64,000 nucleotides of DNA from Akkermansiaceae bacterium (GTDB lineage Bacteria; Verrucomicrobiota; Verrucomicrobiia; Verrucomicrobiales; Akkermansiaceae): NCBI GenBank assembly GCA_043716765.1, contig JAYSYA010000274.1, forward strand, positions 3,082-67,081. The letters run 5' to 3'. Within the stretch, counting starts at the first letter, position 1, and every line of letters begins with the position of its first letter. A program made the position numbers and the translations under genes. Shown in pieces: positions 4,344-33,476 of this stretch. The notes under the pieces are model-generated. The model was not told where the DNA came from and ran no database searches. It was given only the letters and a program-made list of their open reading frames with translations.

Positions 4344-5690
4344 TCAGACGGGCCGGTCGTGCATTGAATTACGCCAGAAATCCAAACGCTCCCGGATGCG
4401 TTTCTCCATGCCCTGGTCGCCGGGCTGATAGTAAATTTTCCCCTCCGGCAAATAAGCCTGCGGAATGTAGGCACCCTCGTAATCGTGGGCGTAAAGATAC
4501 CGCATCGACTCCTCGGGCTCGCCGGACGCCGCAGCGATTTTCTTGCGGGTGTTCGTCCGTAAATGCACCGGCACGGCGAGCGTGCGGCCGTTTTCCACGT
4601 CATCCATCGCCCGGCCCAGCGCGGCGTAAGCGGTGTTGGATTTCGGCGCGGTCGCCAGATAGACCGTGGCCTGCGCCAGCGGAATCCGGCCCTCCGGCAT
4701 GCCGATGAATTCGAACGCCGCGTGCGCGTCCATCGCCACCCGCAGGGCGTTGGAATCCGCCAAACCGATGTCCTCCGAGGCGGAAATCACTAACCGCCGC
4801 AAGATGAAGCGCGGATCCTCGCCGGCGTGCAGCATTTTCGCCAGCCAGTAGAGCGCGGCATCCGGATCGGAACCGCGGATCGACTTGATGAAGGCGGAAA
4901 TCGTGTCGTGGTGCGCGTCGCCGTGGGCATCGTAAACCACCGCCTTGCGCTGGATGGATTCCTCCGCCACCGCCAAGGTCAGGTGGACCGAGCCATCGTC
5001 ATCGGGAGTGGTCAAAACCGCCAGCTCCAGCGCGCTCAACGCCTTTCTAACGTCACCATCGGATTTCTCTGACAAGTGCCGCAACGCGGCGGGATCGGCG
5101 ACCACTTGATATCCGCCTAGGCCGCGCTCCACGTCGGATAGAGCCCGCTCAAGGACACCGACCACGTCAGCCACCGGCACCGGCTCGAGCTGGAAAATTT
5201 GCGACCGCGAGACCAACGGCGAGTTCACGTGGAAATACGGATTGTGCGTCGTCGCGCCGATGAATCTAACGATTCCGCGCTCGATGTGCGGCAGCAGCAC
5301 GTCCTGCTGGGCTTTGTTGAAACGGTGGATCTCGTCGATGAAAAGGATGGTGGTCTCGCCACGCAAGTCGCGCCAGGTCCGCGCTTGGTCGATCTTCGCC
5401 CGGATCTCCGCGACGTTAGATTCCACGCCGTTGAGCGATTCAAAACGCGAGCCGGTCGTCCGCGCGATCACGCTGGCAAGCGTGGTTTTACCGGTCCCGG
5501 GCGGCCCGTAGAAAATCAGCGAGGTAAAGCGGTCCGACTCGATCGCCCGCCGCAGCAATTTCCCGGGAGCGAGAATATGTTGCTGCCCGGCCACCTCTTC
5601 CAGCGAGCGCGGCCGCATCCGCGCTGCCAGCGGCTCGGCGGGATTCGGCTTGTCAGTTAGGGCGGCGGGAGTGGTGAAAAGGTCGGACAC
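4344..5690 (-). CDS. rarA: Replication-associated recombination protein A (AAA+ ATPase)
   Basis: PLAARMRPRSL, GPPGTGKT, FIDEIHRFNKAQQD, SAFIKSIRGSDPDA, YAHDY. Start probably GTG at 5690 (VSDLF). Confidence 0.93.
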   Translation of the reverse strand: MSDLFTTPAALTDKPNPAEPLAARMRPRSLEEVAGQQHILAPGKLLRRAIESDRFTSLIFYGPPGTGKTTLASVIARTTGSRFESLNGVESNVAEIRAKIDQARTWRDLRGETTILFIDEIHRFNKAQQDVLLPHIERGIVRFIGATTHNPYFHVNSPLVSRSQIFQLEPVPVADVVGVLERALSDVERGLGGYQVVADPAALRHLSEKSDGDVRKALSALELAVLTTPDDDGSVHLTLAVAEESIQRKAVVYDAHGDAHHDTISAFIKSIRGSDPDAALYWLAKMLHAGEDPRFILRRLVISASEDIGLADSNALRVAMDAHAAFEFIGMPEGRIPLAQATVYLATAPKSNTAYAALGRAMDDVENGRTLAVPVHLRTNTRKKIAAASGEPEESMRYLYAHDYEGAYIPQAYLPEGKIYYQPGDQGMEKRIRERLDFWRNSMHDRPV

Positions 5691-5996
5691 AGCGGATTTC
5701 CCGCACCATCGCCGCAGCACGCCCGCCATTCCAGTCGATATTCCTTGCTGCAATTGCGAGATTTCCAACTTTCCTTAATCTTAAACCCCGATTGCGCCGC
5801 TTATGGCCGATTTTGAGACCAGTTGGCCGATTTAGGGACAATTTAATGCTTTCGTTATCCTGAATTTCAGGCAATTTGAATGCGTTCAGAGGCGCTTCGG
5901 TGCCAAAGAGCTCTCAGCCGAGAAGCCGAGTCCACACAAGTTCGTTTTTGATTTCCGGGGGGACGTCAACCGAGCAGGGCAACGCCGAGTGGCTCT

Positions 5997-6048
5997 GAAA
6001 AAAAGCGCGCGTTGCGAAATCCGGGGGGATATCCAACGCGCGCTTTTC
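5997..6048 (-). terminator. Intrinsic terminator downstream of the S41 peptidase gene
   Basis: Perfect 14-bp inverted repeat AAAAGCGCGCGTTG (6001-6014) / CAACGCGCGCTTTT (6034-6047), with a T-run after the stem on the minus strand, 20 nt past the stop. Confidence 0.7.
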
Positions 6049-6067
6049 TGTTATCCCGTGGCGTCGG

Positions 6068-7294
6068 TCACCGTCCGCCGGCGTGAACCGCAGCCAACGC
6101 CCGGATCGCCGCGACCATCACGGGATCTTCCCAAGCCGCGATTTTCTCCCGTTCGGCGGGTGCGAGCGCGTCGCTCTGGCAGCGCTTGACGAAATTCGCG
6201 CGGCCCGGGTCGTCGATGACCACCGTGACATCAGGCGTGATCCCCAGGCGGTGCGGCGTGTTTCCCGATGGCGTGTGATAAGTGGCGATGGTGAGCCGCA
6301 ACGCCGTGCCGCCGCCCATCGGAATGATGTTCTGCACCGAACCCTTGCCGTAGCTGACCTCGCCGACGACGGTGGCGCGCTTTAAATCCTGAAGTGCGCC
6401 GGCGGTCAGTTCCGAGGCGGAGGCGGACATCCGGTTGAGGAGGACGACCACTGGATAGTCGCGTTTCCGGCGTTGGCGGTCCGGGGTTTTCAGCGGTTCC
6501 GCCGCCTCACCTTCCCGGCCGCGGGTGGTGACCACGGCGGTGTTAGGCGGCAGAAAAAGCCCGAGAATCTTCACGGTTTCGTTCAAATCACCGCCGCCGT
6601 TATCGCGGAGATCGAAGACCAGCGATTTCATGCCGCTGTCTTCGAGCTCGTCGAGGGCAGCTTCCATTTCACGGGCGCAGCCACTGCCGAAAGTCGCCAG
6701 GCGGACGTAGCCGAGCCCGCTTTCCGGGTGCCAGATTTTCGACTCGGCGACCGAGCGCTGTTCCACCACGCGATGAACGAGCGCCACCTCGAACGGTTGC
6801 GGCGCGGCCGGCGACTTGAGCAACAGCCGGCTGGTCTCGCCCGCGGCGCGGCGCAGCGGTCCGAGCAACTCGGAGAAATCCGCGCCCTGGGTTTTCCGCC
6901 CGTCGATTTCCAACAGCCGCGAGCCGGGTAAAACGCCGGCAAGCGCCGCCGCGCCCAACGGGAAAACCGCAGCGATGTAGGGTCCGTCATCGCGCAATCC
7001 CAAGCTGATCCCGAGCGACGGCACCTCCGGATTGAGAGCTTGGTTTTCCTGCATTTGCCGGGCCATCTCCGGGTGGATGAACGACGAATGCGGATCGAGG
7101 CTGGCAAGCAGCCCTTCGAGCGCATGGTTGACGAGCCGGTCGTAAGCCAGACGGTCCGCATCCGGGTGGCGCTTGCGGACCGCCTCCAATACTTCGACGA
7201 AACGCTCGATCGCCGGGTAAGCCGCTTCGTCGGGATCAGGCGGCGCGGCGAAAGCGACCGAACTGATCCCGCAAAGCAAACAAACGAGTTTCAT
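6068..7294 (-). CDS. S41 family carboxyl-terminal processing protease (PDZ + peptidase)
   Basis: Signal peptide MKLVCLL; LDPHS; PDZ; DLRDNGGG; SASASE; GKGSVQ; YHTPSG. Start set at ATG 7294. Confidence 0.9.
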   Translation of the reverse strand: MKLVCLLCGISSVAFAAPPDPDEAAYPAIERFVEVLEAVRKRHPDADRLAYDRLVNHALEGLLASLDPHSSFIHPEMARQMQENQALNPEVPSLGISLGLRDDGPYIAAVFPLGAAALAGVLPGSRLLEIDGRKTQGADFSELLGPLRRAAGETSRLLLKSPAAPQPFEVALVHRVVEQRSVAESKIWHPESGLGYVRLATFGSGCAREMEAALDELEDSGMKSLVFDLRDNGGGDLNETVKILGLFLPPNTAVVTTRGREGEAAEPLKTPDRQRRKRDYPVVVLLNRMSASASELTAGALQDLKRATVVGEVSYGKGSVQNIIPMGGGTALRLTIATYHTPSGNTPHRLGITPDVTVVIDDPGRANFVKRCQSDALAPAEREKIAAWEDPVMVAAIRALAAVHAGGR

Positions 7295-15732: not shown

Positions 15733-16117
15733 CTATCAGGTGGCTAAGCCCGGCGCATCAAGCTCGTCTCCGAACTCACTCAAGGCCGCGCTCATCCAGC
15801 CCAATTTCTATCTGATCGAAGAAGCCACCGTCGGCCTCCACCTCGAAGACGTCCAGCGCCTCATCGACGTCCTCCACCACCTCGTCGATGAGGGCCACAC
15901 CGTGGTCGTCATCGAGCACCACATGGCCGTCGCCGCCGAAGCTGACTGGATCCTCGACCTCGGCCCCTAAGCCGGCGACGGCGGCGGCCAGATCATCGCC
16001 CAAGGCCCGCCTGAAAAAATTGTGAAGTCCAAGACCTCCCGCACCGCGCCGTTTCTCAGGAAATCCTTAGGGAATTGGAGTTTCCCGCGATTTCCCAGCT
16101 TCAGCACGCTGAAATAA
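15733..16117 (+). pseudogene. uvrA: 3' fragment of a UvrA-type ABC ATPase with two nonsense codons and a frameshift
   Basis: [15 protein letters not shown] (TAA 15745), frame change, then [38 protein letters not shown]...[33 protein letters not shown] (TAA 15968). Confidence 0.85.
15985..16058 (+). repeat. uvrA 3'-end direct repeat, copy 1
   Basis: 74 bp, 65/74 identical to 17329-17402 by manual alignment. Confidence 0.9.
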
Positions 16118-17317: not shown

Positions 17318-17328
17318 CCCGAAGACTA

Positions 17329-17402
17329 CGGCCAAATCATCGCCCAAGGCCCACCAGAGAAAATCGCCAGGTCCAAAACCTCCCGCACCGCGCCGTTTCT
17401 CA
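17329..17402 (+). repeat. uvrA 3'-end direct repeat, copy 2
   Basis: Encodes GQIIAQGPPEKIARSKTSRTAPFL, starts 11 nt after the fic stop, and reads on to TGA at 17420-17422. Confidence 0.9.
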
Positions 17403-17583
17403 AGATTGCTTTACGGCTTTGAAAAATGGACCGCGAGATTCTTCTCGCCCGAGGCCAACTGGAAGCGCGAAATTCATTCCGCGCGGAATTCTACGCATGC
17501 CTTTTCCCTCGCCATTCCCAGCCGGCGTTCACAACCTCCCGCAGCCTCCGGATCACCTGAGCCTCGCTAAAGCTTTCCCTGAA

Positions 17584-20422: not shown

Positions 20423-21042
20423 TTACGAAAAAACCCGTCTCAACGCGGCGGCCGGGAGGGACTTGATGGCTTTCAACTCGGCGCGCGCCGCGGTGAGGAT
20501 TTCCGTGGCGGCGGTGAGGCGGGCGTCGAGTTGCATAGTGAGATTGTCCTGCTGCTTGCGGCTCGGAAGGCAGACGTGAAACTCCCGTGCAGCGGGCATG
20601 TAAATGGTTTGATGGATCGCGCCGGACGACTTGGTTTCCATGTAGGCCTTCGATGCGCGCAGGGCCTGCATGAGGAAACGAGGTGCCAGATCGCTGCCGC
20701 AGATCCAGTTGAAGAAATGCTGACGGTGGCCATCGGTCGGCCTGCCCATGATTGTTGTGAAGCCGACTTGAACATCACGGCCGAAGACGACGGTGTCTTT
20801 GGGGAGAATGCGGGCGGACGAATTCTTAATTCCCAGAGGATTGGTGTAGCCTTTGGTCTCCATCGCCACCTTTGCCGTCGATGGCGCGGATGTCGGGGAA
20901 GGAAACCCAGGGAATTTCGCCGCCCCAACCCGGTTGGCGGCGGCTGGGGGTGTGACCGGATTTGAGACCGGCCTGGGTGGCAAGCCGCTGCCACGACCCA
21001 CCCGCCGAGCCGCAATCAATCCATCGTGTTTTTCCCGCTCAT
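20423..21042 (-). pseudogene. hsdS: Type I R-M specificity subunit remnant (single TRD, frameshift near 20870)
   Basis: KSGHTPSRRQPGWGGEIPWVSFPDIRAIDGK, +1 frameshift, then VAMETKGYTNPLGIKNSSARILPKDTV...LPSRKQQ...KSLPAAALRRVFS*. ATG 21042 overlaps the TGA of the duplicated hsdR end; most of the first TRD is missing. Confidence 0.78.
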
Positions 21043-21048
21043 GCGGCT

Positions 21049-21077
21049 AACAACCTCCGTTTGGTTTCCATGACGAG
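21049..21077 (-). repeat. hsdR 3'-end direct repeat, copy A
   Basis: AACAACCTCCGTTTGGTTTCCATGACGAG (29 bp) is identical to 21947-21975; weaker similarity extends about 25 bp further. The minus strand reads LVMETKRRL. Confidence 0.92.
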
Positions 21078-21116
21078 CCAGGCGGGATTGGCGGAGGCTT
21101 TGGCCGGATGGTTTTC

Positions 21117-21551
21117 TCATACCGCTTTAAGGAGTTGGAGGTCGGGGAGTGAATAGGATTTGAAGCCTGCATCGAAGGTAACGAAGGCAAGGTCCGCGGT
21201 TTTCGCCCAAGCGGCGAGATAGGCGTCCATCCAAAGCTTGGGCGAGGCCGTGCGCCCGGCGATGTGTTGCCGCCATGCCCCGTCGAGCCCGGCGGGTTCC
21301 ATGGGCAGGTAGGCGGTGCGGATGTCACCGACGAGTTTTTCCCAAACGTGCCAGGCATCGTCGGGGGTGTGTGTGTCGTCCCCCATGACGCTGCGGTTGA
21401 TGAGCAGGCGGAGGACGGTTTGCTGGAGCGGCCGGCACCAGCAGCAGGTTGCGGCAGGGCGCTCGCTCCACCAGTCAATGGCTGCGGCGTGATGTTGGTG
21501 GCTCTCGACGAGGATGGGCAGCCAGACGTTGGCGTCAACGAGGGCGGGCAT
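21117..21551 (-). CDS. vapC: VapC-type PIN domain toxin (TIGR00028-like)
   Basis: MPALVDANVWL, SHQHHAAA..WW, LWMDAYLAA, FVTFDAGF acidic PIN residues. Confidence 0.88.
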   Translation of the reverse strand: MPALVDANVWLPILVESHQHHAAAIDWWSERPAATCCWCRPLQQTVLRLLINRSVMGDDTHTPDDAWHVWEKLVGDIRTAYLPMEPAGLDGAWRQHIAGRTASPKLWMDAYLAAWAKTADLAFVTFDAGFKSYSLPDLQLLKAV

Positions 21552-21882
21552 GGGCGGCGAGTTCTTCTTGATCCATTTCCTCAAGCGCTTGCTCGACGGC
21601 TGCGGCGGGGATTTGCGGTGCTCCTTTTCTGGCTGGGATCAGCGGACCGCTGAGGCGGTAGCCCTGTGGGTAAGCCATACGCAGGCTCTCGGCGTCCCGA
21701 TGGCGGCTCAGTTGGGCCGGGGTAACGACCGGGATTTCGGCAGTGGTCCGCGAGCTACCACCCTCATCAAGCCATTTCTGAAAAAGATCCGCAGCCACCT
21801 CGCGGATGCGCCGCCCTTCTTCGGCCGTGCGGGCCTTGACCCGCCGGTAAAGGTCGTCCGGAATGTCGATGGTTGCCTTCAT
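21535..21882 (-). CDS. Ribbon-helix-helix antitoxin (VapB-like)
   Basis: MKATIDIPDDLYRRVKARTAEEG RHH start. Lies immediately upstream of the PIN gene and overlaps it. Confidence 0.82.
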   Translation of the reverse strand: MKATIDIPDDLYRRVKARTAEEGRRIREVAADLFQKWLDEGGSSRTTAEIPVVTPAQLSRHRDAESLRMAYPQGYRLSGPLIPARKGAPQIPAAAVEQALEEMDQEELAAHARPR

Positions 21883-21936: not shown

Positions 21937-22368
21937 TCAGGCGACGAACAACCTCCGTTTGGTTTCCATGACGAGTTGGGCGGGATGGCCGTGAGCCTGG
22001 AGGGCGGCGAGGCCGCCGGCGCGTTTGACGGCGGGGACGTCGAAGAGATCGGGGAATTCCAGGCCCGACGAGGGCGAGCAGCACGCCTTCGGTGGTGTTT
22101 CCGAAACCGGCGAGCCAGGCGGCATTAGCGGCGGCGAAGGCTTCCACGCGGTGGAGGCGGGCGCGGCGAGCTTTACCTTGTAGTCGGCCACTGAGACGGG
22201 CATCGCCTTGCCATCGACCTCGGCGACGAACGAGATGCCGCCATCGAGGATTTCCACGGTGACGCCACGGGCCTCGACTTTGATCGGGACGGGATTTCCA
22301 CCGCCTTCTTCCTCACTATCAGACGCGGGCGTTTTTCTCCGGGTGGCCATCCTTGACCGCGGCGGCAT
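21937..22368 (-). pseudogene. hsdR: Type I R-M restriction subunit C-terminal remnant with internal deletions and frameshifts
   Basis: IKVEARGV...VDGKAMPVSVADYKVKLAA / RVEAFAAANAAWLAGF / GLEFPDLFDVPAVKRAGGLAALQAHGHPAQLVMETKRRLFVA*, spread over two frames. Matches recalled EcoEI-type HsdR C-termini. Confidence 0.65.
21947..21975 (-). repeat. hsdR 3'-end direct repeat, copy B
   Basis: Exact 29-bp match to 21049-21077. Confidence 0.92.
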
Positions 22369-27054: not shown

Positions 27055-28896
27055 ATGAGTCAATCAATCGAAACCTCTCACCTACCCTTGCAAAAATGGG
27101 TCGCTGCAATGACCGCCCTCTGCACCCCCGAAACGGTCGAGTGGTGCGACGGTTCGCAAGCAGAGTGGGACCGTCTGACGACGCTGATGGTGGACAAGGG
27201 GACCTTCACCCGCCTCAATCCTGCCAAGCGCCCTAACTCGTTCCTCGCCCGCTCGACACCGTCCGACGTCGCCCGCGTGGAAGACCGCACCTATATCTGT
27301 TCGAAACGCCGCGACGAAGCTGGCCCCACCAATCACTGGGCGGACCCCGCCGAGATGCGCACAAAGTTGAACGAAAAATTCAAAAGCGCCATGAAAGGGC
27401 GGACGATGTATGTCATCCCCTTCTGCATGGGTCCGCCCGACTCGCCGCTCGCCAAGATCGGCGTGGAAATTTCCGATAGTCCTTACGTGGTCGTCAACAT
27501 GCGGATCATGTGCCACATGGGTGCCCACGTCCTCAAGCGCCTCGAAGACGAAGCTAACGGCACGCTCGCCATTAAGCGCGACGGACACGGCCAGTTCATT
27601 CCCTGCCTCCACTCCGTCGGCGCGCCGCTTGAGCCCGGCCAAGCCGACTCCACCTGGCCCTGCTGCGATGACAAATACATCGTCCATTTTCCCGAGACCC
27701 GCGAGATCATGTCCTTCGGCTCGGGCTATGGCGGCAATGCCCTGCTAGGAAAAAAATGTCTTGCCCTGCGCATCGCTTCCAACATCGCCCGCGAGCACCA
27801 ATGGATGGCCGAGCACATGCTCATCGTCGGCATCCACGCGCCGAACGGCACCAAGAGCTACCTGACCGCCGCCTTCCCCTCCGCCTGCGGCAAAACCAAT
27901 CTTGCCATGCTCATCCCGCCCAAAGCCTATCTTGATGCGGGATGGAAGACCTCCATCGTCGGCGACGACATCGCCTGGCTGTGGCCTCATGCGGACGGCA
28001 AGCTCCACGCGATCAATCCGGAAACCGGCTTCTTCGGCGTGGCTCCCGGCACCGCTTACGAGACCAATCCCATCGCCATGGAGTCGATGAAGGAAAACAC
28101 CATTTTCACCAACGTCGCGCTAACGGATGACGGCGACGTCTGGTGGGAAGGCATGTCCCCGACCAAACCCGCGCACCTCATCGATTGGACCGGCAAGGAC
28201 TGGACGCCCGACTGCGGCCGCGCCGCCGCCCATGCCAACGCCCGCTTCACCGCGCCCGCCGTGCAGTGCCCGACCATCGACCCGGAGTGGCAAAATCCGG
28301 ACGGCGTGCCCATCGACGGCATCGTCTTCGGCGGCCGCCGCCCCACGACCATGCCGCTTGTCTATCAGGCATTCAACTGGAGCCACGGCGTTTACATCGG
28401 AGCCACCATGGGTTCGGAAATGACCGCCGCCGCCGCCGGCACCATCGGCAAGGTCCGCCGCGACCCGATGGCCATGCTGCCGTTCTGCGGCTATAACATG
28501 GGCGCGTATTTCGGCCATTGGCTGGAAATGCGCCGCTACCTGACCAGCCTGCCGCGCTTCTTCCACGTCAACTGGTTCCGCAAGGACGAAGACGGAAAAT
28601 TCCTGTGGCCCGGCTTCGGCGAGAACATGCGCGTCCTCGAATGGATCGTAAAACGCTGCCACGGTGCCGCCGCCGGCTACGAAACACAGATCGGTTGGAC
28701 TCCGGCGTTCGAGGATTTCAACATCGAAGGTCTCGAGGGCTTCAACCGCGAGAGCTACGACAAAGTCATGGCCTTCAACCGCGCGGAATGGAAGACGGAG
28801 CTCGTCAGCCAGGGAGAACTCTTCATCGACCTCTATGACGACCTGCCGAAGGAACTCATCTTCCAACGCGAGCTGCTAGCAGCGCGTCTGTCCTGA
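27055..28896 (+). CDS. pckG: Phosphoenolpyruvate carboxykinase (GTP)
   Basis: [57 protein letters not shown]. Confidence 0.97.
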
Positions 28897-28900
28897 GATG

Positions 28901-28976
28901 GAGAATGTGTCCCGGCGGTCTCAGCCGGGGGCGGTGGCTTTGAATCCGGCTGAGACAGCCGGAACACTTTGAAGCG
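28901..28976. repeat. 76-bp REP-like palindromic element, copy 1
   Basis: GAGAATGTGTCCCGGCGGTCTCAGCCGG...CCGGCTGAGACAGCCGGAACACTTTGAAGCG; internal stem GTCTCAGCCGG/CCGGCTGAGAC; 74/76 identical to 31683-31758. Confidence 0.93.
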
Positions 28977-28993
28977 GGGGAAGGAGCAGAACC

Positions 28994-29798
28994 TCAATAC
29001 GTCGGCATCGCACCGCAGCGGAAAACCGCATCCAGCACGTTCTTATCCGTCCGCGGATCATAACGAACAGTCATCGCGGTCCGGCGCTTCTCGTCGTGCC
29101 AATCCTTCCAATAAATCATCAGTGCCTTGCCATATTCCTTGTGCTCCACCACCGCTTTGATCTGCGAATCCAGCGACCCAATGGCGTGCTTCGTCTCGAT
29201 GAGTAATATCCCGTCCCGTGCCACCGTCCGGTTTTTCACACCGACGATGAAGTCCGGGAAAAACCGCCCGCCATCAGGGCGGACAATGGCCACCGAGTGC
29301 TTCTTCTTCACGGGATTCCGGTGCCACCACAGAACCGTTCCCTCCGGATCATGATCCAACAGCTTGGCGAACTCGACTTCCCACGGATTCAAATCCGCCG
29401 GGAAAACGCCATAAACATTCTTAAATGATAGATTTAGCTTCACCGGCGAATCCACAAATCCCGGCAACGGCTCCGTTTTCCGCGTGAATGAAAATCGCGC
29501 CGCGCAGGATTTCTCCACCTCGCGCAGCAAGCCGGGATGGCGGACAAGGATCAAGGCCAGCGCCACTTCCAGCCGCTCCTCATCCTCCGCCACCTCGGTC
29601 ATGCCATGATTGCGGAACTCCACCGCCAGCCGCTTTAGCAAGTGATCCTGCAAATCCTTCGGGCTTAAATATTGCTGCCGCAGGAGAAGCCATGCTGGCC
29701 TGTGCTTCCTGCAATTTGGTGAAAACCGTGCGGAGGAGCTCGTTCGTGGAATCCGTCCCGATGCCATGGCGGCGGAGAGAAAGGCGTTTCCGCCCCAT
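28994..29798 (-). pseudogene. Type III restriction (Res) subunit C-terminal remnant
   Basis: NVYGVFPADLNPWEVEFAKLLD...WWHRNP...FFPDFIV...LIETK PD-(D/E)XK nuclease end. Frameshifted near 29700; helicase domains absent. Confidence 0.7.
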
Positions 29799-29861
29799 GA
29801 GCGATCCAGCCGTTTAGTGATGAGGTGGGCGGCATTCAGGACGAGGATCTCGATGTGCCAC

Positions 29862-29984
29862 TTACCGGCGACTGTTATCCTGCTCCCACACCAGCCCGAA
29901 CCTCTTCCGGTCCCGCGCCTCCAGCAGCTCAACCAGCTGTTTCTTCGTCAGATCGCGAAATTTTGTCGGGTCATTGGCGGGCAC
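29862..29984 (-). pseudogene. Type III methyltransferase (Mod) N-terminal stub
   Basis: VPANDPTKFRDLTKKQLVELLEARDRKRFGLVWEQDNSRR*. The L..LLEARDR..FGLVWE pattern resembles Mod N-termini. Confidence 0.55.
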
Positions 29985-30141
29985 AGGCAAATTAATTGCC
30001 CAGCCTGTGGGGTGAGAAAAGAAATTCGGGCATTGGATTTCTCGTCAACGCGCGAGGTTTTGAGCAAAATGTCTGTCACCGACCTGTGATGGGAATGAGA
30101 AGTTCTCTTCCCATGAACTGGTTGTCTACGCCCTCGAGTGA

Positions 30142-30372
30142 CTAATGGGTCTTGCAGATCAGGAACTTCTCGAAATCACCCGTTGTCGGAGCACTGAACT
30201 CTTGGCGCCGGATGAAACCCCTCGATTCCAAGTCATTAATGCGCGTCCGAAGACGTGCAACCCGTGCGACTTGCTCGCTGGACTGAGCCTCAACGGTTTT
30301 GCGCAAGGCACCCGCAACCTTTTCGACGATCTCAGAAGTAACGGCGGTTGTGGAGGAAGAATTGGCGGTCAT
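30142..30372 (-). CDS. Small hypothetical protein (76 aa) downstream of the SDH protease
   Basis: MTANSSSTT...VARLRTRINDLESRGFIRRQEF..., overlapping the protease stop by 41 nt and followed by a hairpin at about 30089-30114. Confidence 0.5.
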   Translation of the reverse strand: MTANSSSTTAVTSEIVEKVAGALRKTVEAQSSEQVARVARLRTRINDLESRGFIRRQEFSAPTTGDFEKFLICKTH

Positions 30373-31204
30373 GACGGTTGATGTAGTCGGTGATGAACTC
30401 GGAATACGCAAGAATTTTAGTCCGCAGTTCAAGATCTGTCGAATAGTCTTCGATCTTGAGTTTGAGGAGGTTTTTAATGGTTCCCACCCCAATCTTTCTT
30501 CCGTGGGAATGCCAGATCTTGTTGTCCGAGAGCCTCATGGCAATTTCCTCGGCCCGCTGCTGCTTTTCGGATTCTGTGACCGGCTGCCCTATTTTGGTAG
30601 GATTCGAATCGTGGATTTTCCAATCCTTGAACTTGTATTCAACCAGCCATTTTTTGAGCAGTGTGATGGTGAGGTTTTTTGCCTGCTCGAACCTGCTGAG
30701 CATGGCCAAGTCCAGATTCTGAAGAATTACCAACTCGGCATCAGTCAGAGTTCCCAAGGCAGATTTCTCGACCATCTTCTCGACTTGATCCAAATATCCA
30801 AGAGCCGGAACCCAATCCTTGCCATTATGAACCTGGGGATCAATCGGCCCCAACGAAGACGTGTAGTCCATATAAATCGCATCACCTGAAAGAGCAAAAA
30901 TGGTGCCTGCGGACATTGCTTCGTCAGGAATGATGAACAAGACTTCAGAGTAGTGATACCGAATAATTTCAACCAGCTTTTCGACAGTCTCGGCGCTTCC
31001 TCCGGGGGTGTTCAGAACGATTGCAACCTTATCTCTTGTGGGCTTTTCCTCTCGTAAATCCTCGATGAACTCTCGAAATAATTTTTCAATCGACGGGAAG
31101 ATAGGGCCATGAAACAGAACCACATCAGCATTCAAATGCTGTTCAAGGGCCATGATCCGCTCCTTCGCGGTTTCTCTAATATGCGCATCAAATACTCTCA
31201 TCAT
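30332..31204 (-). CDS. SDH-family ClpP/crotonase-fold serine protease
   Basis: LNTPGG, AMSAGT (nucleophile Ser), SSLGPIDPQ, WHSHGR motifs. Low-GC codon usage. Confidence 0.88.
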   Translation of the reverse strand: MMRVFDAHIRETAKERIMALEQHLNADVVLFHGPIFPSIEKLFREFIEDLREEKPTRDKVAIVLNTPGGSAETVEKLVEIIRYHYSEVLFIIPDEAMSAGTIFALSGDAIYMDYTSSLGPIDPQVHNGKDWVPALGYLDQVEKMVEKSALGTLTDAELVILQNLDLAMLSRFEQAKNLTITLLKKWLVEYKFKDWKIHDSNPTKIGQPVTESEKQQRAEEIAMRLSDNKIWHSHGRKIGVGTIKNLLKLKIEDYSTDLELRTKILAYSEFITDYINRHDRQFFLHNRRYF

Positions 31205-31682
31205 TGTGGCTGGGTGGGTCGGTGATTGGATTGCGAGAAGATGACTTTTTTTATACTCCGAATAAGGTGCTTAAGGGTTACTCAGGGCGTAGGGTTTGTA
31301 GCAGTGGTGGTGGTGGCAAGTAGTAACGGAATAATGGATTTCTCCAACCGTTACTGGAAACTGGCAGAAGCTGTTTCTTTAGGAAGCTTCAAATGTGAAA
31401 AGCTAATATTTCCCACAAATCGCTCGTATTGAGCCGACTAGGATATTGGGACGGCTGCAATTGGATGAGCCTCGACATGACCTCGCACGGACCTCGGGGG
31501 CGATCTGTATCAACCTTGGCGTCGGCTCTTGCGGACCTCGGAGCGGTCAGTACAAAGCTGCGCACCGGCTGATACGAGCCTTGGGTTGGGCTGGGTTGAA
31601 ACTGGACATTGATCGCGATGACCTTTTTCGCATTCCGCATCAACCTCGGGACGCGCGGCGAGGGCCTTGGCTTGGGCTGAAA

Positions 31683-31758
31683 GAGAATGTGTCCCGGCGG
31701 TCTCAGCCGGGGGCGTTGGCTTTGGATCCGGCTGAGACAGCCGGAACACTTTGAAGCG
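31683..31758. repeat. 76-bp REP-like palindromic element, copy 2
   Basis: Direct repeat of 28901-28976 with 2 mismatches; ends 2 nt before the stop of the convergent PBP gene. Confidence 0.93.
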
Positions 31759-31760
31759 AA

Positions 31761-33476
31761 TCAGTTGTTCCCCAACCGCTTGACGAACTCGTCGAGCAGG
31801 GACTTGAGGCGGGGTTCGCGGGCGATGGCGGCGGGCTTGTCGAAGCCGAGCCAGATGGCGGTCGCGCCGCCGGGGCCGAGGCGGAGGGTCCAGGCGTCGC
31901 GCTCGGAACCGGTGGCTCCAGTGAAACAGCGGGTGCCGCCGGAGCGTTGCAAGACGCTGGTGGCATCGAGCGCGGCGGTGGGGCTGAGGGCGGCGCTCAG
32001 AACGGGCTTGGCTTTGTAAATCACCTCGCCGGTGCTGTCGCGAATTTCCTGAATCAGATAGGGTTTGGCGCGTTTTCCCTGGTTGCCGAGGGTGGCGAGA
32101 CCGATCGACATTTCTCGGGGGGTGGCGGCGACGGAGCCGCGGAACAGGTCCTCGGTTTGGACAAAGGGGCCGGCGATGTGGACGCCGCAACGTTTGGCGA
32201 GGCGTTCCACTTCGGATGGGCCGATCTGGCGGCCGGTTTGCACGGGCTTGCCGGGCAGCACGAGCTTGCCCCGCTCGGCGGCGGCGGCGGCGACGAAGGG
32301 TTCGAAAGCGGACCCGAGATCGCGGCGGGAGCGGCTGCGGTCGACGCGCGAGTCGCTGAAATTTCGCCCGCCGATGAGGGCAAGGGTGGCACCGCTGCGG
32401 ATCTCGGTGGTGACTGCGGCATATTGCAGATAGGCGGGCTCGGTGCCGGAGACGTGGTTGGCTTCGGTGGGGTGCGCCCATGTTTTTTCCCCCTCCAGGT
32501 CCTCGACGGCGCGGGTGAGTTCGGTTTCGAGGCGGTTCTGCCAGGATGCGTCCAAGGTGGTGTGGACCGTGAGACCGCCGAGCTTGATGTCGTCCGCTTC
32601 AAGGATGCGGTCGAGTTCGCCGCGCACGGCTTGCAGGGCATAGGATGTCTGGGTTTCACGCTGCTCCTCACTGACTAGGTTGACGGGCTCGGCGGCAATC
32701 TGATCGCGGCGGGCGGGATCGATGAGCTTCATCACGACCAGTCGGTTGAGCGTTTGGCTGCGCTGTTGGAGGGCGGCATCGAGATTGCGCAGGGGCGAGA
32801 AGGCGTTGGGGCCGCGGATGATGCCGACGATCATTGAGCATTCACCTTCGCTGAGGTTGCGGGCGGGTTTGCCGAAATAGGTGCGCGCCGCTTGCTCGAC
32901 GCCATCGGCACCGGCCCCGAAATAGACGCGGTTAAGGTAGTGGGTGAGGATCTCGTCCTTGGTGTAGCGGGATTCAACTCGGAGTGTCAGCGCGATGGCG
33001 AGGAATTTGGCGTGCAGGGATTTCTGCTTTAGTTTGAAGCTCAGCCGCGAGAGCTGCATGGTGAGCGTCGAAGCGCCCTGGGTAAAATCCCAATCCTTGA
33101 CGTTCCTAACTGTCGCCCGGAGCAAGCCGCGGAAATCGACTCCGCCGTGCTCGAAAAACCGCGCGTCTTCGCGGGCGCGCAGCGATTTCACCAGGAAGTC
33201 CGGGATGTCCTCGCGCTTCACCAGCTTGCCGCTGTTACTGCCGGGGGCGGTGATTTCCTGGCCCTTGCGGTCATAAAAAGTGGTGCCAGCGGGGAGCTTG
33301 GCGACCTCGTCCATGTCAAAGCGCATCGCGAGCATGAAGTAGAAGAACGCGAAGCCGAACAGGGCGATGAATCCCGCGAGCGAGAGTTGGAACAGTAATG
33401 TCACCGGGCCGTGCAGCCACGCGGGGAGCCAGCGCTTCCAAAACGACGGTGGATGGATGGGACGCCAGGTGGACAT
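31761..33476 (-). CDS. Class A PBP-like transglycosylase with degenerate transpeptidase domain
   Basis: TM anchor, EDARFFEHGGVD, GASTLTMQL. Transpeptidase SxxK reads SAFE; no SxN or KTG. Confidence 0.85.
   Translation of the reverse strand: MSTWRPIHPPSFWKRWLPAWLHGPVTLLFQLSLAGFIALFGFAFFYFMLAMRFDMDEVAKLPAGTTFYDRKGQEITAPGSNSGKLVKREDIPDFLVKSLRAREDARFFEHGGVDFRGLLRATVRNVKDWDFTQGASTLTMQLSRLSFKLKQKSLHAKFLAIALTLRVESRYTKDEILTHYLNRVYFGAGADGVEQAARTYFGKPARNLSEGECSMIVGIIRGPNAFSPLRNLDAALQQRSQTLNRLVVMKLIDPARRDQIAAEPVNLVSEEQRETQTSYALQAVRGELDRILEADDIKLGGLTVHTTLDASWQNRLETELTRAVEDLEGEKTWAHPTEANHVSGTEPAYLQYAAVTTEIRSGATLALIGGRNFSDSRVDRSRSRRDLGSAFEPFVAAAAAERGKLVLPGKPVQTGRQIGPSEVERLAKRCGVHIAGPFVQTEDLFRGSVAATPREMSIGLATLGNQGKRAKPYLIQEIRDSTGEVIYKAKPVLSAALSPTAALDATSVLQRSGGTRCFTGATGSERDAWTLRLGPGGATAIWLGFDKPAAIAREPRLKSLLDEFVKRLGNN

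Follow-up and report, generated by a model that had tools for sequence, protein, structure and literature searches.

Insertion accompanied by a long target duplication was first described for restriction-modification (R-M) units (Nobusato et al. 2000, Gene 259:99), and was later reported for R-M units of types I to IV in which duplications of >30 bp, often lying over stop codons, flank units devoid of mobile-element genes, the mechanism being left open (Furuta, Abe & Kobayashi 2010, NAR 38:2428, PMC2853133). Here we analyze a 64,000-nucleotide stretch of the genome of an Akkermansiaceae bacterium (Verrucomicrobiota; assembly GCA_043716765.1, contig JAYSYA010000274.1, positions 3,082 to 67,081 of the forward strand), referred to as the window, in which a cassette of accessory genes lies between two copies of a 76-bp hairpin-forming repeat at 28901–31758. 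The repeat is a REPIN, a hairpin-forming doublet of the repetitive extragenic palindromic (REP) type, and the cassette holds an intact protease gene with a small partner gene next to the remnant of a restriction enzyme. Our best explanation, which we judge to have an even chance of being correct, is that the cassette is an insertion with long target duplication at a REPIN already resident behind the gene on its right, which encodes a protein resembling penicillin-binding proteins (PBP).

Like the R-M cases, the cassette is a short selfish unit with an R-M remnant, set between host repeats of >30 bp that abut stop codons, with no transposase or integrase and with a repeat length that varies by event. 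Set against the structural criteria of Furuta et al., it has the 76-bp repeats, an insert of 2706 bp (<20 kb) and no mobile-element genes, whereas no single-copy empty site was found in the 24 congeners inspected or among the listed matches of 208, and the repeat, with 29 loci, is not unique. Homologs of both R and M genes are a further part of that definition; here a C-terminal Res stub is secure and Mod is read from a 60-aa peptide. Unlike the R-M cases, the target belongs to a dispersed REPIN family, of a kind that copy number excluded from the Furuta screen, and the intact cargo is a protease/partner pair that has the same footprint in several phyla.

The second described system that the locus recalls is that of REPs and REPINs with their REP-associated tyrosine transposases (RAYTs), in which a short palindromic core occurs between genes as singlets and inverted doublets (Bertels & Rainey 2011, PMC3116915; PMC3337134). 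The repeat family studied here has a palindromic core of ~22 nt, doublets with variable spacers, intergenic placement, singlets alongside doublets, compensatory changes between arms and inheritance at orthologous sites. It departs from the described families in its low copy number and in that no repeat-flanked RAYT was found in this metagenome-assembled genome (MAG; 336 contigs, 3.43 Mb, 91.5% complete). We know of no case in which REPINs carry cargo or are duplicated around genes.

The Duplicated Hairpin

Relatives of the organism are coded G###, contigs C### and loci with the protease/partner module L###. The two repeat copies are as follows.

28901–28976, plus strand: REPIN copy 1, an inverted doublet of the REP core GTGTCCCGGC(G/T)GTCTCAGCCGG with a 17-nt loop
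31683–31758, plus strand: REPIN copy 2, positional ortholog of the REPIN on the PBP side in G069 and of its shortened form in G001

The copies are direct repeats of 76 nt that agree at 74 positions (97.4%) with a spacing of 2782 bp, and each can fold into a hairpin with 25-nt arms (88% complementary) around the loop. Both mismatches fall in the loop, so that the longest exact stretches shared by the copies are 33 nt. A 39-nt pattern built on the core has only these two sites in the window, compared with none expected in shuffled sequence. Copy 1 starts 4 nt past the end of the pckG open reading frame (ORF; 28896), and the stop codon of the convergent PBP gene (31761–31763) lies 2 nt beyond copy 2. 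Between the copies all genes are on the minus strand, and the GC content falls to 0.46–0.54 over 29900–31400 and 0.57–0.59 over 28977–29900, against 0.60–0.69 in the flanks. Profile searches of the cassette ORFs (Pfam, NCBIfam, PADLOC) found no integrase, transposase or resolvase domain. An earlier note, made from the sequence of the window alone, had described this pair of palindromic repeats, their closeness to the two stop codons and the GC-poor minus-strand cargo lacking an integrase, and all three observations hold. Within the cassette, no tight repeats surround the protease pair alone. Promoter and terminator scans gave scores no higher than shuffles, and Rfam returned only sub-threshold microRNA noise on the hairpin.

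Across the MAG, BLAST and nhmmer place the repeat family at 29 loci on 25 contigs. Its unit is the ~22-nt palindromic core GTGTCCCGGCTGTCTCAGCCGG, with 46 matches when up to 4 of 22 mismatches are allowed, and the core occurs as singlets and as 12 inverted doublets that have variable spacers and compensatory arm changes. By this anatomy the 76-bp repeat is a REPIN made of two REP cores in inverted orientation, and the description of the hairpins as REP-like in the earlier note is borne out. That note had also proposed counting the 76-mer throughout the genome, and the count cuts both ways. The proximity of the two copies is not significant, because 29 loci in 3.43 Mb would by chance give ~0.7 pairs no more than 3 kb apart, and two further REP pairs ~3.1 kb apart (on C241 and C211) surround ordinary genes and have not been homogenized. 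Their identity is another matter: among the 66 possible pairs of doublets, copies 1 and 2 stand at 97.4%, the runner-up at 78.4% and the median at 68%.

Diagnostic variants indicate which of the two copies is the older. Both have CGGTCTCAG, the "CGG" variant of the left arm, where nearly all other family members have CTGTCTCAG, and both share the right end ACACTTTGAAGCG (also given as CTTTGAAGCG). Each of these states is present on the PBP side in G069 and/or G001, whereas the REPs on the pckG side of both relatives have CTGTCTCAG and different right ends. The PBP-side markers in both copies thus imply that copy 1 is a copy of the PBP-side element rather than the heir of an old pckG-side REP. 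On the strength of these alignments the pair is a recent local duplication.

The Same Footprint at Other Loci

The protease and its partner form a module that recurs in other phyla, and we surveyed its flanks for tight direct repeats of at least 30 nt. Such repeats bracket the module at 6 of the 105 evaluable loci compared with 2 of 316 shifted control positions (Fisher p = 0.004). What is duplicated is either 33–125 bp of local sequence or a tRNA 3' end. The module lies between perfect 39-nt hairpins at L123 and between terminator-like hairpin repeats (33 nt at 97%, 64 nt at 83%) at L112, and each of these flanking hairpins occurs only twice in its own genome, within the copy number accepted by Furuta et al. 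At L101 (Ignavibacteria) the duplicated sequence is the final 103 nt of an aconitase-like gene, which the proximal copy completes, and the distal copy retains the ATGA overlap with the next gene; no clean empty site was found in 40 relatives, whose right flanks vary in their own right. At L168 and L173 the duplications are of gene ends, 125 nt and 41 nt long, respectively. Islets of 1.4–1.8 kb without an integrase occupy tRNA-Met and tRNA-Pro 3' ends at L136 (4367–6229) and L159 (4838–6317), where the flanking repeats measure 17–20 nt and the motifs TGTTGGTATCG and TTGTGCCACAT recur near both ends in the manner of integrase arm sites. A third repeat copy was absent within ~17 kb at the four loci checked.

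Since duplications of local sequence surround this module in other phyla as well, the window cassette is best read as an insertion that duplicated the hairpin. The earlier note had proposed that foreign DNA entered at the hairpin and duplicated it, and to this extent we concur; the ancestral site that it envisaged, in which pckG and the PBP gene were separated by one hairpin, received no support from the relatives compared (see below).

The window itself has two further units of the same architecture. A Fic/DOC gene (PF02661, PF13784; 16184–17317) lies between 102-nt direct repeats at 15976–16077 and 17320–17421 (79% identity, spacing 1344 bp), and a PIN-domain toxin gene (21117–21584) with a small upstream ORF lies between 55-nt direct repeats at 21039–21093 and 21937–21991 (85% identity, spacing 898 bp), neither with a recombinase. 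Three addiction-type units in 16 kb are thus each enclosed by duplicated local sequence.

The surroundings of the module vary. No neighbor is dominant across 150 loci; in BLAST clusters spanning L079 to L229, R-M or BREX-type methylases were read at ~9 of ~105 loci and IS1595-like transposases at ~7. The L168 cassette (4516–6296) sits at the 3' end of a methylase gene of the Eco57I/PglX type (Pfam), and its bracket includes a 102-aa C-terminal fragment of a resolvase. In G137 (L238, contig C1, 9236–10048), a DUF433-like and PIN/Mut7-C-like gene pair, named from its peptides, takes the slot held by the protease cassette in G119, between aconitase-like and PrpD-like genes, with a duplicated gene end of 52–95 nt on either side. 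In a member of the Latescibacteria (L114, 3904–7470) the module is flanked by repeats of ~1.1 kb at 97% identity, both direct and inverted, which are probably copies of an insertion sequence (IS), in a composite-transposon-like arrangement.

The Cargo

The cassette comprises the following features.

30332–31204, minus strand: intact gene for an SDH-type serine protease of the ClpP fold, 290 aa (PF01972, E 1.5e-15), with the lowest GC content of the cassette
30142–30372, minus strand: partner ORF of 76 aa, overlapping the 3' end of the protease gene by 41 nt
31300–31682, no strand assigned: non-coding leader preceding the protease gene, in which (A/G)ACCT(C/T)GG motifs recur at irregular spacing
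28994–29932, minus strand: ORF312, a fused pseudogene in which residues ~73–312 represent the C-terminal stub left from a ResIII/DEAD (type III Res-like) helicase of ~815 aa
29691–30044, minus strand: further gene fragments, of which 29691–29871 resembles G023 (contig C6) and G048, and 29882–29980 a piece in G080 (blastn, tblastx)

The protease scores 57.4 bits against PF01972, above the curated cut-off of 31.3, and matches phrog_11747 at E 4.5e-59. Its 65 bits against NF047768 (E 5.5e-18) fall below the cut-off of 250, and it is therefore not the NCBIfam equivalog. Relatives at 48–86% amino acid identity are found in Verrucomicrobiota, Planctomycetota, Acidobacteriota, Gemmatimonadota, Bacteroidota, Proteobacteria and other phyla. 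Within 100 congeners there is no close homolog, only three weak partial matches at 30–33% identity, and the genome has no second copy of the cassette. Of 71 loci, at least 57 have an ORF of 63–80 aa that follows or overlaps the protease gene; many of these ORFs share a motif resembling FYxEMKxxGxxKKxEYxLPPxDTIGR, and nine are directly similar to the 76-aa protein, with a constant offset of ~-37 nt. Nucleotide homology of other loci to the window is confined to 30150–31201. By this conservation the protease and partner are a discrete two-gene unit that moves horizontally. Judged by its low GC content, the lack of a close congeneric homolog and the spread of its relatives over phyla, the pair is foreign, as the earlier note had held for the cargo as a whole, and no recombinase accompanies it. 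It is probably an addiction or phage-exclusion pair. The term defense cassette, used in the same note, stays unproven, with PADLOC matching none of the four cassette ORFs.

The leader resembles a second element of ~380 nt at C328 (~350–680), with 75–85% blastn identity over three blocks and an alignment of the two, and neither an Rfam match nor a tandem-repeat call was obtained for it. It could be an operator or an iteron-like array.

ORF312 begins with unrelated fragments, and its last ~240 residues have 76% amino acid identity to the C-terminus of a homolog in G103 and 36–38% to frames of 834–872 aa in G022, G057 and G014. Full-length relatives (~815 aa) have PF04851 and PF00270, several being named type III restriction enzymes. 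The stub itself has no match in Pfam, NCBIfam or PADLOC, including none to PF04851, and is thus a remnant rather than a functional Res member. The G080 match to 29882–29980 lies 1.3 kb from another Res stub, and the adjoining fragments possibly include the N-terminus of Mod, as read from a 60-aa peptide containing ...KKQLVELLEARDRKRFGLVWEQD. "Collapsed R-M system" is a fair description because of the Res relatives and of fragments that match pieces near other Res stubs in congeners. Where the earlier note had seen a collapsed type III mod/res pair, the Res C-terminal stub is accordingly secure and Mod is a suggestion of the peptide. With its near-native GC content and congeneric homologs, the Res stub is not obviously foreign.

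The Flanking Genes and the Locus in Relatives

The genes on either side of the cassette are as follows.

27055–28896, plus strand: pckG, GTP-dependent phosphoenolpyruvate (PEP) carboxykinase, left flank (PF00821, E 9.5e-164; PF17297, E 3e-95)
31761–33476, minus strand: class A PBP-like peptidoglycan glycosyltransferase, right flank (PF00912, E 2.8e-51; TIGR02074, E 3.2e-90)

Orthologs of pckG in congeners have 77–91% identity and always different downstream neighbors; those of the PBP gene have 57–88% identity and varied downstream neighbors. In the complete genomes of G002, G008 and G015 the two genes are 0.3–2 Mb apart. The earlier note had suggested that the pckG–PBP regions of relatives would reveal an empty site. 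Gene-by-gene inspection of 24 congeners found the two genes adjacent in none. An artificial empty-site query (pckG end, REPIN and PBP end) against 208 congeners, with the best ~150 matches listed, gave two separate matches per genome and no empty site among the matches listed; where both of these fell on one contig, the smallest separations were 21, 72 and 203 kb. In the closer relatives G069, G112, G164 and G218, these genes stand beside different neighbors and there is no homology to the cassette.

Relatives have REPs of their own at each gene instead. In G069 a single REP follows pckG and a full doublet follows the PBP gene, at separate loci, and G001 has a degenerate doublet behind pckG and a PBP-side form that lacks the 34 nt between two CAGCCGG direct repeats. 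In both, the offset of the element behind either gene is the same as here. Relative to G069, both breakpoints fall at the distal REP edge, and the sequences that partner pckG and the PBP gene in G069 are found here on C290 and C170, where they run into other sequence without a REP.

Local synteny at these genes is unusually fluid, the order downstream of pckG and of the PBP gene differing in nearly every species of a genus of >200 species. REP copies at C39:28747, C291:16383 and C124:2761 sit exactly where gene order departs from that of G014 and G001, and for this reason we regard REPs as marking synteny breakpoints. At the other synteny breakpoints, a family member lies within 400 nt of 3 of 47 ends against ~0.9% expected (p = 0.009). 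In G164, two tandem REPINs behind the PBP gene coincide with a contig end.

Proposed Origin of the Cassette

We propose that the resident REPIN behind the PBP gene was the target, and that insertion of DNA there would have left one copy on each side. The insert would be a selfish-gene unit consisting of a type III-like R-M system, later collapsed to the Res stub, and an imported protease/partner module. The chemistry would most likely have been host recombination with no dedicated enzyme. In one route, a circular or linear donor bearing a copy of the hairpin would recombine with the resident copy by Campbell-type or homology-facilitated illegitimate recombination; in another, a break at the palindrome would be repaired with fill-in of both ends. 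Either would place a hairpin on both sides. The junction with pckG would be a separate, lineage-specific rearrangement at REP edges, before or after the insertion.

The diverged pairs elsewhere (79–90% identity) bear on the choice of route. In these pairs the gene is completed by one copy while the native junction persists at the other, a pattern by which one copy would often be donor-derived and which would favor Campbell-type or homology-facilitated illegitimate recombination over a staggered cut. Where the hairpins are perfect, repair of a palindrome break by filling in both ends is just as possible. The sequence of events, the chemistry of recombination and what the cargo does are inferred; a duplication is common to every history that fits the data.

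Several observations weigh against an insertion with target duplication. No empty site was found in the 24 congeners inspected or among the listed matches of 208, and insertion is thus a deduction. The repeat is multi-copy, a situation that Furuta et al. would treat as a possible "chance insertion between repeats" (PMC2853133). Gene conversion between two pre-existing REPINs would yield the same identity. Since the Res stub is near-native in GC, two separate events may have contributed to the cassette. About 94% of module loci have no flanking repeat, the 140-nt repeats flanking the module at L079 (Prosthecobacter) are ordinary members of a 32-hit family and not mutual nearest relatives, and at L136 and L159 the tRNA ends and arm-like repeats point to integrases rather than host recombination. 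The sequence is a MAG contig, and Logan contigs from the same samples match the window at 100% and end 30 nt inside each REPIN copy, leaving linkage across the repeats without independent support; the population may hold a mix of integrated and excised forms of the cassette.

Alternative Explanations

The rival that survives best, which we nevertheless consider unlikely, dispenses with insertion-linked duplication. Here pckG and the PBP gene would each have had a REP or REPIN of its own, rearrangements would have brought the accessory genes to lie between them, and gene conversion would then have overwritten the pckG-side copy with PBP-side sequence. The elements found right behind both genes at the same offsets in the closest relatives fit this history, as do the heavy rearrangement at both gene ends in the genus and the PBP-lineage markers that run along the whole of copy 1 as they would in a conversion tract. 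However, the likeness of the copies breaks off precisely at the element boundaries, the REP pairs on C241 and C211 have escaped homogenization at a similar distance, and the module and other addiction genes have unique flanking duplications elsewhere, where conversion cannot apply.

A site-specific origin, with the cassette an att-flanked element without its own integrase, the REPIN its att site and the recombinase encoded elsewhere, is improbable. It would make the cassette a satellite or a cis-mobilizable element (CIME), CIMEs reportedly being integrase-less islets between att sites (a description attributed to Pavlovic et al. in 2004 and Bellanger et al. in 2011). The cassette does share with CIMEs a cargo between direct repeats without recombination genes, and the tRNA-flanked L136 and L159, with their short repeats and arm-like internal repeats, fit well; the resolvase fragment inside the L168 bracket and the reuse of an aconitase-like gene 3' end by different cargo in G119 and G137 lend further support. 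Unlike CIMEs, the window cassette is bounded by a REPIN and not by a gene or tRNA end, with no recombinase in or adjoining it and no resident cognate integrase or tandem accretion seen. The lengths (33–125 bp) and identities (79–97%) of the repeats are atypical for att cores, and no third copy accompanies the four other loci within the ~17 kb noted above.

It is very improbable that the position of the accessory genes between two repeats of an abundant intergenic family is mere coincidence, with no causal link. The expected number of close pairs, the pairs around ordinary genes on C241 and C211 and the ordinary repeats of L079 all allow for it, but an identity of 97.4% against at most 78.4% in the other 65 pairs, a common orientation and shared lineage-specific variants do not, and given the identity outlier a chance arrangement is disfavored.

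The earlier note had invoked possible mobilization in trans by an HUH or RAYT enzyme and had placed a RAYT remnant at 40.6 kb. On such a view the REPINs would act as IS200/IS605-type hairpin ends and a RAYT/HUH (Y1) transposase would move the cassette as single-stranded DNA. IS608-type elements and palindrome-associated transposable elements (PATEs) are bounded by similar hairpins in direct orientation. The subterminal hairpins of the cassette match this arrangement, a unit of this kind could move without the usual target duplication, and the genome has 8 matches to PF01797 (Y1_Tnp). None of these matches, in the 91.5% of the genome that the MAG represents, has a REP core within 1.5 kb, so that no cognate RAYT is identifiable. 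The contig has no Y1_Tnp signal, in particular none in the ORFs at 40.2–41.1 kb even at E ≤1, and the proposed remnant falls with it. Unlike IS200/IS605 elements and PATEs, the cassette has no TnpA in or near it, its hairpins are the host's own and already stand at the flanks in relatives, and it has no second copy in the genome; elsewhere the module lies between non-hairpin flanks, at coding 3' ends and tRNA ends, unlike the output of a hairpin-specific enzyme. We therefore hold mobilization by such an enzyme to be very doubtful.

An assembly artefact, with the contig mis-joined at the repeats, is highly improbable. The MAG is in 336 contigs, and the Logan contigs break inside both copies, so that a k=31 graph holds a path consisting of an empty site plus a circle. 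A mis-join is unlikely because the copies differ at two loop positions and share no exact stretch longer than 33 nt, and an ancestral-type pckG REP would match copy 1 over only ~14 nt; moreover, C290 and C170 continue into other sequence without a REP. Finally, attC sites of an integron-like array without integrase (a cluster of attC sites lacking integron-integrases, CALIN) can be dismissed: hairpin-forming direct repeats of ~76 bp beside promoter-proximal small genes recall integron cassettes, whose CALIN-type arrays can be integrase-less, but neither copy has an R'' (RYYYAAC) or R' (GTTRRRY) core on either strand, there is no array, the family is dispersed singly over 25 contigs, and its copies stand right behind housekeeping genes in relatives too.

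Implications

Insertion with duplication of the resident REPIN may be one instance of a wider process. We tentatively suggest, while thinking it on the unlikely side, that addiction-type units (SDH-protease/partner, Fic, PIN and R-M) spread by one recombinase-free pathway that duplicates 30–125 bp of host sequence, with hairpins (REPINs and terminators) and gene 3' ends preferred; REPINs would then serve both as docking sites and as rearrangement breakpoints. The duplication of a hairpin around foreign cargo that the earlier note envisaged appears right, and is of a kind already known but obscure.

The mechanism of long target duplication is still unknown 25 years after its description for R-M units. 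The present comparison indicates that the footprint can form on a REPIN hairpin and that a two-gene module other than an R-M system has the same footprint in several phyla, while one 16-kb stretch presents three such events that differ in cargo and in the age of their repeats. The result is a comparative data set together with a small cassette (~1.2 kb) for testing the mechanism, and, if the reading is true, the protease cassette, found across phyla, would become the first tractable system for studying long target duplication. The comparison also links REP-type repeats to gene gain and synteny breakage in one lineage of the Verrucomicrobiota, REPINs having been studied mostly in proteobacteria.

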